IMG/VR virus record: IMGVR_UViG_3300045988_057840
Span: 1 to 38,956 of that record
Direction: 5' to 3' (one strand)
Origin: a virus
DNA length: 38,956 nucleotides
The translations under genes and the position numbers were made by a program. Shown piece after piece: positions 2,796-18,413 of the stretch. Under the pieces are notes generated by a model, which saw only the letters and a program-made list of their open reading frames with translations, was not told the origin of the DNA and did not search any database. Position 1 is the first letter of the stretch. Each line of letters begins with the position of its first letter.

Positions 2796-3272
2796 ATGTG
2801 GCTAGAATTAATGCAACATATTAAATCTACTATCGAGAATAGCGGTGCTGCATTTAATGTCATGCTAGGTGCTATGCGACCACAGGCAGCAAAGATTGAC
2901 GAGAATGGCGTTATTATGGTTATTCGTGGGGAAACTACGAGGGGAGATAACTCCGTTCAATCTGAATTGCAACAAGAACTTTATATCGAGGTTTGGGGAC
3001 GCAATGACAACCCTGACTTGGAAGTCGGATACGAAGTTATTGCTAATTTCGAGGAAAAGTTCGAGGCAATCATTAATGATCTACGCAAACGATGTGGTGA
3101 ATTAGACGAAAAGGCATGCATATTGCAGTCTAATGGCTATCAGATTATAGATTTGGTATGTACAAATAAAACTGGCGACCATGACAGTGTACGTCCTTTA
3201 ATAGGTACGCAATATCGCTTTATGGTTCGCCTTATTGATTTAAAAGAAGAAACTAACGGAGGTATTTTCTAA
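2796..3272 (+). CDS. Neck / tail-terminator candidate (hypothetical)
   Basis: ATG at 2796 lies 1 nt after the upstream stop and follows CAGGGGG. I preferred it to the 2745 alternative start. The stop overlaps the next ATG (TAATG). Confidence 0.45.
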   Translation: MWLELMQHIKSTIENSGAAFNVMLGAMRPQAAKIDENGVIMVIRGETTRGDNSVQSELQQELYIEVWGRNDNPDLEVGYEVIANFEEKFEAIINDLRKRCGELDEKACILQSNGYQIIDLVCTNKTGDHDSVRPLIGTQYRFMVRLIDLKEETNGGIF

Positions 3273-15408: not shown

Positions 15409-15939
15409 ATGCAAGAATTAACTAATTTCATGAGCGAGGCTTGGCGGACGTTGACGGATTCGTTCATTCTAAAAGCCTTGCTTGCCGTCATCGCTGATGT
15501 AGCGATATATATGATTGGCTTAAAACATGTGCAGGTGCTAGGGATATTTATATTACTGGTATTCCTAGACCTCATTACAAAATGGGCGGCTATATCGTAT
15601 CAAATGCTTGTAGATATGGGGGCGAATGCTGACAATCTAACCGCATTAGATAAATATATAGCGATTCCAGCCGCATGGGGTAAGGGGCTTATATCCTCAA
15701 AGCATATGCGAAAGCCTTTCGTTACAAAAGTTTTAACATATTGCCTTGCTACTGGCGCCGCATGGTGCTTTGACTATATGGCAGGTCAATACGCTTTCGC
15801 CGTCAATATTACATGGCTATATCTGGGCTCAGTAGAATTACTGAGTATTCTCGAGAATATGCGAGACGGCGGAAATACTACCATATCTGGCTTGCTTGAC
15901 GTGGTTCATGCAAGAGTGGATATGATTTTGAAAAAATAA
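15409..15939 (+). CDS. Holin (Phage_holin_4_1-like, about four TM segments)
   Basis: Multiple hydrophobic helices. FLDLITKW and VELLSILEN motifs are typical of this holin family. Lies immediately upstream of the endolysin. Confidence 0.75.
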   Translation: MQELTNFMSEAWRTLTDSFILKALLAVIADVAIYMIGLKHVQVLGIFILLVFLDLITKWAAISYQMLVDMGANADNLTALDKYIAIPAAWGKGLISSKHMRKPFVTKVLTYCLATGAAWCFDYMAGQYAFAVNITWLYLGSVELLSILENMRDGGNTTISGLLDVVHARVDMILKK

Positions 15940-15954
15940 TATAGTGTTGTTTGT

Positions 15955-15990
15955 GCCACGCTCACGATATATGGGCGTGGCTTTTATATT
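15955..15990 (+). terminator. Hairpin with T-run between holin and endolysin
   Basis: GCCACGC (15955..15961) pairs with GCGTGGC (15975..15981), followed by ttttatatt. Confidence 0.45.
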
Positions 15991-16011: not shown

Positions 16012-16401
16012 ATGAAAATTGGTACATATTTTGATGATTATGAGTTCGCTTGTAATTGTAACAGACATGAAGTCGATGAGACTGGACACAATAAGTTAGA
16101 CCATATCATCGACAAGCGTTTAGTGGATTTATTAGACGCAATTCGTGAACGTTTAGGGGTTCCGTTATATATCAATAGTGGCTACCGTTGCCCTGAACAT
16201 AATGCAGAAGTAGGCGGTGTGTCTAATTCTCAACATGTATTAGGGACGGCAGCCGATATCACCTATGACGGCATTGATGTTGATTACCTTGCACAAGTTG
16301 CCGAGGAATGTGGGGCGGATGGAATTGGCAAATACTATCACCAAGACTTCGTACATGTTGATGTACGAGGGTATGCAGCACGTTGGAATGATCTCGACTA
16401 A
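16012..16401 (+). CDS. Endolysin, peptidase M15 (zinc D-Ala-D-Ala carboxypeptidase-like) family
   Basis: SGYRCPEHN, SQHVLGTAAD and FVHVD make up the H/D/H zinc motif set. The ATG at 16012 is 6 nt after AGAGGTG. Confidence 0.85.
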   Translation: MKIGTYFDDYEFACNCNRHEVDETGHNKLDHIIDKRLVDLLDAIRERLGVPLYINSGYRCPEHNAEVGGVSNSQHVLGTAADITYDGIDVDYLAQVAEECGADGIGKYYHQDFVHVDVRGYAARWNDLD

Positions 16402-16415
16402 ATAAGGGGGCATAT

Positions 16416-16865
16416 ATGTATGCGACATTCAAAAAGTACTTCGATGCGGTTAAATCTCAGATTACTATTAAGCGGTTTATTATTGCTTGTGGTTGTGTGT
16501 TGCTCCTCATTGGTGCATGCCAACTCATTGACGGCTACTTCACCGCAAGAGGAAACTATCAACGTGCCATTGACAAGTTGGAACGAACTCAAAGGGAACT
16601 TGATACAAGCAGACGCATCAATCAAGAGCTCAAACTTGTCATTGAACAAGGCTCAGAGCTTAACCGTCAAGCAAGCGACCGAATTGAACGAATTGAAGAT
16701 TATCAACGAAGAACGGAGCAAGGAATTGACCGAGCTCAAAGCTATCAACAAGAAACAGGAGCAAGAGTTAGCGAAAGCATCGGAGCTAACAACCAAGCAA
16801 GCGAACTCATTGGACGCAGCTTACGCATCATCGAACGAGTTGAAAGCGGAAATAAAGAACAATAA
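16416..16865 (+). CDS. i-spanin-like protein (N-terminal TM segment plus coiled coil), frame A of a dual-frame locus
   Basis: FIIACGCVLLLIGACQLI is followed by an R/E/Q-rich helical region. The SD AGGGGG lies 5 nt upstream. Third codon positions have very little G, like other genes in the window. Confidence 0.5.
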   Translation: MYATFKKYFDAVKSQITIKRFIIACGCVLLLIGACQLIDGYFTARGNYQRAIDKLERTQRELDTSRRINQELKLVIEQGSELNRQASDRIERIEDYQRRTEQGIDRAQSYQQETGARVSESIGANNQASELIGRSLRIIERVESGNKEQ

Positions 16866-16953
16866 ACGAACAGAACAAAGGTTACGACGACAACGTGATA
16901 CATGGGCGATTAGTAATGCTGCATTATTCCTTGCAGGTGTGTTGCGTAGATAG
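16420..16953 (+). CDS. Alternative-frame ORF with u-spanin-like topology (signal/lipobox-like N-terminus, coiled coil, C-terminal TM segment)
   Basis: MRLNLRLLLSGLLLLVVVCCSSLVHA at the N-terminus, ELNELK/ELTELK heptads in the middle, and WAISNAALFLAGVLRR at the C-terminus. It shares the SD with frame A (9-nt spacing). Confidence 0.4.
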   Translation: MRHSKSTSMRLNLRLLLSGLLLLVVVCCSSLVHANSLTATSPQEETINVPLTSWNELKGNLIQADASIKSSNLSLNKAQSLTVKQATELNELKIINEERSKELTELKAINKKQEQELAKASELTTKQANSLDAAYASSNELKAEIKNNKRTEQRLRRQRDTWAISNAALFLAGVLRR

Positions 16954-17022: not shown

Positions 17023-17060
17023 AGGGCACTTACTATAACAGTAAGTGCCCTTATTTTTTT
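17023..17060 (+). terminator. Intrinsic terminator ending the late/lysis operon
   Basis: An 11-bp stem, AGGGCACTTAC pairing with GTAAGTGCCCT, followed by ttattttttt. Confidence 0.8.
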
Positions 17061-17066
17061 GGTAAT

Positions 17067-17086
17067 TTTGACATCGTTTTGACATC
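17067..17086 (+). repeat. Two TTTGACATC direct repeats, 11 bp apart (candidate integrase arm-type sites, P arm)
   Basis: TTTGACATC at 17067..17075 and 17078..17086. Confidence 0.55.
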
Positions 17087-17180
17087 AATTTATATTAAAA
17101 TATACTGAAATATATAATTATATATGTAGTGTAAAATCTGATTAATACTGAATTCCTTGATTTTATAAATGTGTATTAAA

Positions 17181-17247
17181 TGCCACGCCATCTTGAGGGG
17201 GTGGTGAGCGTACGCTCGTGAGGGTTCAAGTCCCTCCAACCGCACCA
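17181..17247 (+). other. attP core: 3' about 67 nt of a tRNA-Leu(GAG) gene, from the D-arm 3' side to the CCA end
   Basis: Anticodon stem CCATC/GGTGG with loop TTGAGGG. Long variable arm GAGC-GTAC-GCTC. T-arm GAGGG-TTCAAGT-CCCTC. Acceptor 3' strand CAACCGC plus ACCA. No matching 5' acceptor strand lies upstream. Confidence 0.75.
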
Positions 17248-17259
17248 AGCTGATTAAAT

Positions 17260-17299
17260 AAGGGCTTACAGGTAATTCTGTAAGCCCTTATTTTTGTTT
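17260..17299 (+). terminator. Intrinsic terminator immediately after the tRNA fragment
   Basis: AAGGGCTTACAG pairs with CTGTAAGCCCTT, followed by atttttgttt. Confidence 0.75.
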
Positions 17300-17341
17300 G
17301 ACATCATAAAGTCTTGCGTGGTTTGACATCATTTTGACATC
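17297..17341 (+). repeat. Three further TTTGACATC direct repeats (candidate arm-type sites, P' arm)
   Basis: TTTGACATC at 17297..17305, 17322..17330 and 17333..17341. The last two are 11 bp apart, and the last overlaps the integrase stop codon. Confidence 0.55.
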
Positions 17342-18413
17342 AGAATATTTTAGAAATACGTTCTACGATGTCATCTTCCATTTTAGGTGTCACATGTGAG
17401 TAGGTATCCATCGTTTCTTGAAATGACGCGTGCCCTAGACGTTCTTGTATGGCTTTCATATTGGCTCCATTTTCGATGAGAAGGGTGGCATGGGTATGTC
17501 TAGTACCATGCATAGTAAAAGTGGGCTTACCGATTAAACTGGCGTATTTCTTACATAACTTGCTGACTTCATCAGGACAGCGAGGAGCACCCTTTATACC
17601 AGGGAATACAAGATTATTATTAATCCAGTTCATGGTTTTAATTCTACGCTTGTCTATGACTGTTTTATGCTTCATAAGCTCCTGGAGCGTTTCCGTATCA
17701 ATGGCAATTATCCGTTTTGAGGATGTGGTCTTAGTTGTATTAGATATAACTGCAGTAGATCCGATTTTGAGGGCTGTTTGTGAAATGGATATAGTTGATT
17801 TTTTGAAATCGATATCCGACCATCTTAAGCCTAATAATTCAGACCGTCGCATACCTGTTGCAAATGCTAATTTAAAAAGTGCATGATGCTCTACGTTAGA
17901 TATATTGGATAGGAAGTTTTTAACCTCATCTACAGATAACGTTACCATATGCCGAACTTTAACCTGCTTTGGCCTATCTATGTTTTTCATATAGTTCTTA
18001 GGGATGATGTCATCTTTTACCGCCTGCTCTAATATGGATCCTAGAATTGTCATGGTGTAGGATATAGTCCTTGATGATAATCCATCCATTGATTCAAAAA
18101 CATATCGTAATGTATTAGGTTTAATTTCGGCCAACTTTACGCCGCCGATTTTATCTCTGATATAGCGATTGATAATGCCTGTATAGCTTTGATATGTGGC
18201 AGGCGTTATAGTCTTTTCCTTTTGTTGTAACCATATATTAATCCAGGTGTTTAATGAAATAGTATCATCGAAATTAGCACATGCTTGATTAGTATTTACG
18301 TATTTCTCCATAGCTTCTATGGCAGCTTTTTTGGTGGTGCCATAAAAGAATTTACGCTTACCGTTGATGGTTTTCGATACCTGGTATCGTCCATCGGCTC
18401 TCTTTTTTGCCAT
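17340..18413 (-). CDS. int: Tyrosine integrase (phage integrase family with N-terminal AP2-like arm-binding domain)
   Basis: N-terminus MAKKRADGRYQVSKTINGKRKFFYG. Catalytic motifs ATGMRRSEL, HGTRHTHATLL and LGHASFQETMDTYSHV. AGGAGG SD. Confidence 0.95.
   Translation of the reverse strand: MAKKRADGRYQVSKTINGKRKFFYGTTKKAAIEAMEKYVNTNQACANFDDTISLNTWINIWLQQKEKTITPATYQSYTGIINRYIRDKIGGVKLAEIKPNTLRYVFESMDGLSSRTISYTMTILGSILEQAVKDDIIPKNYMKNIDRPKQVKVRHMVTLSVDEVKNFLSNISNVEHHALFKLAFATGMRRSELLGLRWSDIDFKKSTISISQTALKIGSTAVISNTTKTTSSKRIIAIDTETLQELMKHKTVIDKRRIKTMNWINNNLVFPGIKGAPRCPDEVSKLCKKYASLIGKPTFTMHGTRHTHATLLIENGANMKAIQERLGHASFQETMDTYSHVTPKMEDDIVERISKIF

Follow-up and report, generated by a model that had tools for sequence, protein, structure and literature searches.

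We describe here a 538-bp stretch (positions 16,416 to 16,953) of the IMG/VR virus record IMGVR_UViG_3300045988_057840 (positions 1 to 38,956 of that record, 38,956 nt in all; hereafter the window), in which two long open reading frames (ORFs), A and B, lie over one another at the spanin position, directly after the endolysin gene. With a probability that we put at roughly 60%, a temperate Veillonella phage here carries a dual-coding lysis locus, which encodes a two-component spanin equivalent that is free of lipoproteins. Gene A (16416..16865, + strand; 149 aa; stop codon 16863–16865) and gene B (16420..16953, + strand; 177 aa; stop codon 16951–16953), the latter in the +1 frame relative to A, overlap over about 450 nt, i.e. 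all of A and 84% of B. Both follow a single Shine–Dalgarno (SD) sequence, AGGGGG (16405..16410, + strand, as read in the sequence), with a spacing of 5 nt for A and 9 nt for B, the two start codons being arranged as ATGTATG. The first-pass annotation of this DNA, which had been made from the letters alone, gave the two ORFs, their common SD and their double start exactly. Homologues of A and B are represented in the databases by 1277 and 562 protein clusters, respectively.

About 160 related loci of Veillonella- and Megasphaera-type phages have retained the pair, down to 22–36% identity in B. The outcome that had been named as speaking against dual coding, namely a single open frame in homologous phages, was looked for in these relatives and did not occur. 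In 20 IMG/VR loci in which A is 58–89% identical to that of the window, both frames are open in 20 of 20 (one is cut by a contig end), B always measures 177 aa, and there is not a single insertion or deletion (indel) over the 538 nt. The same holds for 54 further Veillonella-type loci, save for contig ends and one late frameshift in B (locus L067), the third frame being open there for 4–19 codons only. Two Megasphaera genomes also carry the pair, with a B that is 22–26% identical to that of the window, as do five metagenome contigs of still more distant types. Among 77 IMG/VR loci retrieved with a profile of the Megasphaera-type B, an ORF of 130–163 codons is present in frame A in 75, the median in the control frame being 13; these 75 ORFs have a strongly hydrophobic N-terminal segment and end 52–106 nt before the stop codon of B. 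The exceptions are L115, in which B is interrupted, and L162, in which the match is apparently to the other frame. B lies in the +1 frame relative to A in every lineage, and in an alignment of 66 sequences columns 31–437 are free of indels and the length of B is unchanged. The B proteins of Veillonella and Megasphaera phages are homologous (E 5e-8). Scanning genome contigs with the 8-mers of A itself returned nothing, while scanning with the B alignment led to the Megasphaera loci; distant A proteins gave an alignment too divergent to be used in such a scan. A tblastn search with A and B against 50,697 GenBank phage records gave no match.

A few irregular copies should be mentioned. Only L067 and L115 have a broken B frame. 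The frameshift of L067 (near 2960–2978) lies inside the RQRDTW motif described below, and the remaining tail can be read in another frame; in L115, A is open despite the interruption of B. Both breaks could be sequencing errors or signs of decaying prophages. Some predicted proteins in the databases are chimeric, either B followed by A (P0241, P0261) or A followed by the tail of B (P0247, P0253, the last also with an internal deletion). They may reflect indels introduced in assembly, or else fusions that occur in nature; a protein in which A runs into B would carry a membrane segment at both ends.

The maintenance of both frames in relatives agrees with tests of stop codon avoidance, and both frames can accordingly be treated as real gene candidates at the spanin position, as had been proposed. 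When the B protein was held fixed and its codons were redrawn from phage usage, 17.2 stops were expected in frame A, with a minimum of 6 in 20,000 trials; with the A protein fixed, 10.1 stops were expected in frame B, and none of as many trials gave fewer than 1. In a stricter test, applied to eight diverged lineages, each gene's own codons were merely permuted among synonymous positions. With B fixed, 3.9–8.4 stops were expected in frame A and the probability of finding none was at most 0.006 in each of the eight; with A fixed, 1.1–2.3 stops were expected in frame B and this probability was 0.02–0.23 per lineage. Composition is therefore no explanation of the open frames. The poverty in T that had been invoked to explain them in part is in any case mild (21.9% here versus 26.9% in the window). 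The third frame, in which the first-pass annotation had seen no short embedded lipoprotein ORF, holds no ORF at all, with 14 stops between 16418 and 16953 and a longest open run of 32 codons.

Selection acts on both frames. In the tail of B beyond the end of A (16866–16953), diversity is 0.263 at third positions of B as compared with 0.072 at first and 0.062 at second positions, and the ratio of non-synonymous to synonymous substitution rates (dN/dS) is 0.08; B is therefore a coding gene. Within the overlap, diversity is 0.142 at the third position of B, which is the first of A, 0.101 at the third position of A and 0.084 at the second. Synonymous change is 3–8 times lower in the overlap (apparent dS 0.216 for B and 0.137 for A) than in the B tail (0.58) or the adjacent endolysin gene (1.13), which is the outcome that the comparison of synonymous sites proposed at the outset was meant to detect. 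The low dS of the overlap is the classic suppression under dual coding. An OLGenie-style partition distinguishes changes that are non-synonymous in both frames (dNN) from those that change A and are silent in B (dNS) and the reverse (dSN); for the 20 sequences, the rates are 0.093, 0.217 and 0.140, respectively. The dNN/dNS ratio, which reports on B, is 0.43 (confidence interval, CI, 0.31–0.59) in these 20 sequences and 0.46 (CI 0.37–0.58) in 66 unique Veillonella-type sequences, and the dNN/dSN ratio, which reports on A, is 0.67 (CI 0.44–1.0) in the 20. B is thus apparently the more strongly constrained protein, whereas selection on A, in our reading, would chiefly maintain an open frame, a proper start, the membrane helix and the helical character of the protein. 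The count of third-position G that had been made by hand over 16681–16863 was right (2 in the 60 codons of frame A and 22 in the 61 of frame B). The conclusion drawn from it, that codon usage weakly favours frame A, went in the wrong direction, as variation peaks at the third positions of B and the ratios are lower for B (0.43–0.46) than for A (0.67–0.88).

The start signals differ between the types. In the Veillonella type, an SD is followed after about 5 nt by ATGTATG in 78 of 78 loci, including those that have Amidase_2 upstream instead of the M15 endolysin. In the Megasphaera type, A starts from a TTG behind AGGAGGTG, and B from another TTG, 37 nt downstream, behind a GAGGAGG of its own inside A. 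In the L081 type, the ATG of B and the GTG of A lie 2 nt apart and one GGAGG precedes both. These three distinct solutions argue that both frames are translated. Seven loci (L002, L004, L006, L008, L009, L011 and L077, at about 2997–3007) read ATGTATGTATG; in these, the double start is preceded, at a distance of 4 nt, by one more ATG, from which a mini-ORF of three codons (M-Y-V-stop) runs in the third frame.

Protein A was predicted to have an i-spanin-like build, with an N-terminal membrane helix followed by a long helix, and the energy estimates and the AlphaFold2 models agree with this. The membrane helix comprises about residues 21–38 (FIIACGCVLLLIGACQLI; 16476..16529, + strand) and is co-encoded with the hydrophobic core of the signal peptide of B. 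By summing Hessa-scale energies, we obtained −2.8 kcal/mol over 13–15 residues for this segment and −3 to −5 kcal/mol for its counterparts in other lineages; the N-terminal segment of A is strongly hydrophobic in all of them. AlphaFold2 models A as a single helix over residues 2–148, with a predicted local distance difference test (pLDDT) score of 84. On this modelling, A is predicted to be a type II protein of the inner membrane and to share the build of Rz-like i-spanins, having the N-terminal transmembrane domain and the helical periplasmic domain by which i-spanins are recognized (PMC6139136). The A protein of the window matches phrog_18860, a family of unknown function (E 2.9e-34), as does that of Megasphaera (E 3.6e-7 over profile positions 14–131 of 141). 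Against the Rz-like spanin families phrog_13, 89 and 214, the Megasphaera A gives weak matches (E 4e-4 to 7e-4) and the A of the window none. A lipoprotein reading of A was also considered, since residues 31–35, L-I-G-A-C, resemble a lipobox and are invariant in the first 20 relatives, and one homologue in a JGI record is named 'lipoprotein'. This reading was rejected, the Cys being absent from P0243, P0245, P0246, P0248, P0249, P0255–P0263 and the Megasphaera A. Its absence from distant homologues supports the view that A is a membrane-anchored type II protein.

Protein B begins with a predicted signal peptide (residues 1–34; 16420..16521, + strand), the predicted cleavage site being VHA|NS. 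The n-region and h-region are present, and the signal peptides of relatives end in AxA-type sites (VHA|N, VLA|N, SLA|A, SHA|A, ALA|A, SFA|A), at which B would be cleaved by signal peptidase I. The lipobox-like N-terminus noted in the first-pass annotation did not survive comparison, as it is the AxA-type site that is conserved and not the Cys, which is absent from L024, P0327, P0328 and P0332; a lipoprotein reading of B based on VV[C/F]C was rejected for the same reason. A Thr/Ser-rich linker follows, and near the mature N-terminus lies a conserved motif, T46–K58 (TINVPLTSWNELK; 16555..16593, + strand), in which the Veillonella-type alignment shows no variation at I47, V49, P50, L51, W54, N55, L57 and K58. 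The motif is recognizable as TVQMSLEQYNQLK in the Megasphaera type, its general form being T-I/V-x-V/M-P/S-L-x-x-W/Y-N-x-L-K. AlphaFold2 predicts helices over residues 7–36 and 51–176 (pLDDT 86), the second of about 125 residues or about 19 nm with a pLDDT of 94–97. The part of B that extends beyond A (16866..16953, + strand), whose coding signature is described above, comprises RLRRQRDTW (16879–16905), a Gly/Ala-rich hydrophobic segment (AISNAALFLAGVL; 16906–16944), RR and the stop codon. The arrangement R-Q-R-D/N-x-W/Y followed by 13–17 apolar, Gly/Ala-rich residues and one or two basic residues is kept in all lineages. Together with the dN/dS of the tail, this bears out the earlier proposal that the C-terminal hydrophobic end, being outside the overlap, is not a by-product of it. 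As a membrane span the segment is marginal, at +0.3 to +2 kcal/mol, and −1.1 kcal/mol in Megasphaera. Searches with B of the window against phrog_214 gave E 0.27, and a profile search of the PDB returned non-significant coiled-coil matches only (lamin, coronavirus spike heptad repeats; E at least 0.003), which we do not interpret.

The pair is linked to lysis cassettes. Across loci it adjoins four unrelated types of peptidoglycan hydrolase (Peptidase_M15_3, Amidase_2, GH25 and VgrG3-like_C), usually with a holin nearby, and is therefore tied to lysis rather than to one enzyme. In Megasphaera elsdenii MSK.21.52 (L022, 3919–5734), A and B lie upstream of a putative holin and a GH25 endolysin and not downstream of the endolysin, so that the order of the cassette is not fixed. 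The host of the closer relatives can be told from a prophage copy with an A that is 89% identical to that of the window, located in an 867-kb contig whose flanking proteins, Der, ScpA and IspH-S1, are those of Veillonella; with the distant copies in Megasphaera genomes, all occurrences of the family recorded here are in phages of diderm Firmicutes. Negativicutes are Firmicutes with a lipopolysaccharide outer membrane. Reviews and the outer-membrane proteome of V. parvula indicate that they have no Lol pathway and provide no evidence of outer-membrane lipoproteins (PMC11784454, PMC5491611). The pair thus shares the setting of i-spanins, a lysis cassette in a host with two membranes, as it follows holin and endolysin and its hosts are Veillonella and Megasphaera.

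From the sequences we infer that both frames would be translated and that their products may interact and act at the outer membrane, with the C-terminus of B held in a membrane. The hydrophobic core residues of the two proteins fall on the same nucleotides (r 0.57–0.61 at lag 0 and about 0 at other lags), an xTx codon in A being a Txx codon in B; the helices of A and B therefore share one heptad register along the DNA. In the scheme that we propose, ribosomes positioned on the single SD would start at either ATG, 4 nt apart, and produce two unrelated proteins. A would be inserted in the inner membrane by its N-terminal helix and would expose about 110 residues of continuous helix, as an Rz-like i-spanin does. 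B would be exported by the Sec pathway and its signal peptide cleaved, leaving a helix of about 125 residues that ends in the cationic RLRRQRDTW and the weakly hydrophobic segment and bears no lipid anchor. Following the action of holin and endolysin, the two proteins would disrupt or fuse the outer membrane, probably by forming a coiled-coil complex with the length needed to bridge the periplasm. B would thereby stand in for a lipoprotein o-spanin, which would be unworkable in Negativicutes if these have neither a Lol pathway nor outer-membrane lipoproteins, and contact with the second membrane may be made by the weakly hydrophobic, cationic C-terminus of B or else by the conserved tip at its N-terminus. 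The Gly/Ala-rich segment may act as an anchor that can be released or as an element resembling a fusion peptide. A more specific version of the proposal would be that this is a lipoprotein-independent spanin specific to diderm Firmicutes, in which the C-terminal segment of B replaces the lipid anchor and the co-encoded heptads pair in register; we offer it tentatively, at somewhat less than even odds.

Comparison with known systems reveals both resemblances and departures. The classes of spanins, including the embedded two-component type represented by lambda Rz/Rz1, were defined by Kongari et al. 2018 (PMC6139136). Like Rz/Rz1, A and B follow the endolysin gene and are two envelope proteins encoded in overlapping frames, the second in +1, A being a predicted type II protein with a helical periplasmic domain. 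Unlike in lambda, the overlap takes in all of A and 84% of B and the Veillonella-type starts share one ribosome-binding site, while about 70% of embedded o-spanins begin at 0.4–0.5 of the length of the i-spanin (survey in PMC6139136). B differs from Rz1 in being no lipoprotein, in being longer than A and fully helical and in having a C-terminal hydrophobic end, and we found no significant sequence similarity between the two pairs. In most lineages A and B also have no periplasmic Cys, whereas periplasmic Cys forming intermolecular disulfides have been proposed to be near-universal in two-component spanins (PMC6139136). B has the embedded, out-of-frame gene architecture of two-component spanins, with an atypical extent of overlap and a shared start, but not the lipobox with its invariant Cys that marks an o-spanin.

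The first-pass annotation had seen in B the topology of a unimolecular spanin. The N-terminal export signal and the conserved C-terminal hydrophobic end, which are also features of T1 gp11, hold good, but the lipobox is missing and with it the defining feature of the class. T1 gp11 requires its N-terminal lipobox for anchoring in the outer membrane, whereas B has an AxA site and no conserved Cys and is always paired with A. The periplasmic domain of gp11 is mainly β-strand and that of B, by contrast, a single predicted helix. Kongari et al. noted that spanins of other topologies, for instance a type I protein (N-out, C-in) with a C-terminal membrane domain, would escape the criteria of their search (PMC6139136). 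B would fit the topology of such a type I inner-membrane spanin if its C-terminal segment stops transfer; the class is hypothetical and we found no characterized example of it. B further resembles XhlA of the Bacillus prophage PBSX and the 'hemolysin' PHROGs, which are small coiled-coil proteins with a C-terminal membrane segment from lysis cassettes of Firmicutes phages. XhlA, however, has no signal peptide and is much shorter than B, and the best score of B-type proteins against the XhlA family PF10779, 17.3 bits with a cutoff of 34.7, is not a match. We know of no overlapping partner gene for XhlA. Finally, the double start recalls lambda S105/S107, in which two close starts behind one ribosome-binding site also give two lysis proteins; the lambda starts are in frame and yield near-identical proteins, whereas those of A and B are out of frame and yield unrelated ones.

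Several observations weigh against the interpretation of A and B as a two-component spanin equivalent. For neither did we find significant similarity to any characterized spanin, all matches in Pfam and NCBIfam being below the cutoff and of coiled-coil type. In most lineages the periplasmic parts of A and B contain no Cys (the B of L081 has one). A Foldseek search of BFVD, made with the model of B only, returned nothing, single long helices being uninformative in fold searches. The A proteins of Veillonella and Megasphaera phages show no detectable similarity by BLASTP (E 0.11), and in the 66 unique Veillonella-type sequences the dNN/dSN ratio of A is 0.875 (CI 0.65–1.18), which is not significant and indicates weak amino-acid constraint; we therefore base the case for A on the maintenance of its frame, on the start signals and on the conservation of its membrane helix. 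Moreover, the C-terminal segment of B may be a stop-transfer anchor in the inner membrane, and B weakly resembles, below the cutoff, the coiled-coil and C-terminal-anchor part of the TIGR04211 model. If so, both proteins would reside in the inner membrane, and nothing would evidently connect them with the outer one. Alternatively, therefore, A and B might be real proteins of the cassette that serve as inner-membrane accessory factors, either XhlA-like or regulating the timing of the holin, the outer membrane being breached otherwise. Such a role would be in line with the descent of Negativicutes phages from Firmicutes phage lineages (bioRxiv 10.1101/606087), with the TIGR04211-like build and the lack of an evident outer-membrane anchor, and with weak matches of B-type proteins to PF10779 (E 0.0055–0.02) and to phrog_937/phrog_1193 (E 0.01–0.02). 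However, the matches to XhlA, hemolysin and TIGR04211 models are all sub-threshold and lie in coiled-coil regions, the signal peptide of B is conserved in every lineage while XhlA has none, and two helices of periplasmic length (about 110–125 residues) would be unexpected in a timing regulator. Among the phages covered here, moreover, the family occurs only in those of diderm Firmicutes. We regard this explanation as rather unlikely.

The remaining alternatives hold that one frame only is functional. B could act without A, as a lipid-free unimolecular spanin or as a stalk with a cationic, membrane-active tail comparable to the phiKT disruptin, A being untranslated or non-functional. B is indeed the better conserved frame, it alone has the signal peptide, the periplasm-length helix and the cationic hydrophobic tail (net charge about +6), and the amino-acid constraint on A is weak. 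Yet frame A, which should carry 4–8 stops, has none in the eight diverged lineages (P at most 0.006 in each) nor in about 160 loci; A keeps a start codon and SD of its own in Megasphaera-type loci and always a strongly hydrophobic N-terminal helix, and sites synonymous in B change 3–5 times more slowly in the overlap than in the B tail or the endolysin gene, all of which makes this an improbable account. The converse, with an i-spanin-like A as the only functional product and frame B a by-product of the sequence and composition of A, appears more improbable still. Gene callers choose A about twice as often (1277 versus 562 clusters), A has a PHROG family, and permuting the codons of A leaves B open in 2–23% of trials per lineage. 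Against this, the 88-nt tail of B beyond A has a clean coding signature, with its dN/dS of 0.08, and in nearly all comparisons it is B that is the more conserved of the two; B alone is recognizably homologous between the genera (E 5e-8), its length is constant and its helix indel-free across 66 sequences, and in Megasphaera-type loci it has an internal SD of its own.

In the window, the pair lies in a lysis cassette. The first gene of the cassette encodes a holin of 176 aa (15409..15939, + strand; Pfam Phage_holin_4_1, 26.5 bits with a cutoff of 22.2; phrog_199, holin). It is followed by the endolysin gene (16012..16401, + strand; stop codon TAA at 16399–16401), whose product is a small, single-domain Peptidase_M15_3 protein without a wall-binding domain (PF08291, E 2.6e-25; phrog_894, endolysin, E 1.9e-42). 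A terminator-like hairpin with a T run (17023..17051, + strand; 12-pair stem with six GC pairs, then TATTTTTTT), identified by match to the consensus only, would close the lysis transcription unit, and a second such hairpin (15955–15981; 10 pairs, seven of them GC, then TTTTAT) lies between the holin and endolysin genes. Downstream of gene B, five exact copies of TTTGACATC are found on the + strand (17067, 17078, 17297, 17322 and 17333; within 17067–17341 of the window), where chance would give 0.42. The whole set lies in the gap that separates gene B from the integrase gene (17340–18413, − strand), and the copies flank a tRNA-like fragment at about 17183–17248, which resembles the 3′ part of a tRNA (…GGTTCAAGTCCCTCCAACCGCACCA); ARAGORN found no complete tRNA in the window. 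The copies may be arm-type integrase-binding sites of an attachment region, and the tRNA-like fragment probably forms the core of an attachment site for integration into a host tRNA gene.

Among the papers searched, we found none that links spanins to Negativicutes, Veillonella or Megasphaera, nor any on how phages of Negativicutes and other diderm Terrabacteria breach the outer membrane; spanins go unmentioned in a preprint on prophages of Negativicutes. Because a lipobox is among the criteria that a 2025 survey of lytic proteins sets for o- and u-spanins, that survey would pass over the A/B pair. Automatic annotation, too, always overlooks one of the two proteins, since at any given locus the gene callers have chosen either A or B. 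As a case of dual coding, the locus is unusually clean and long-lived, with two full-length structured proteins that overlap over about 450 nt and are kept to 22–36% identity. To our knowledge, every spanin type known so far depends on a lipoprotein of the outer membrane. Since Negativicutes hosts are apparently unable to make such lipoproteins, a conserved and testable candidate pair of this kind, in phages of a group that includes the genetically tractable species Veillonella parvula, bears on both phage lysis and the biology of the diderm envelope.

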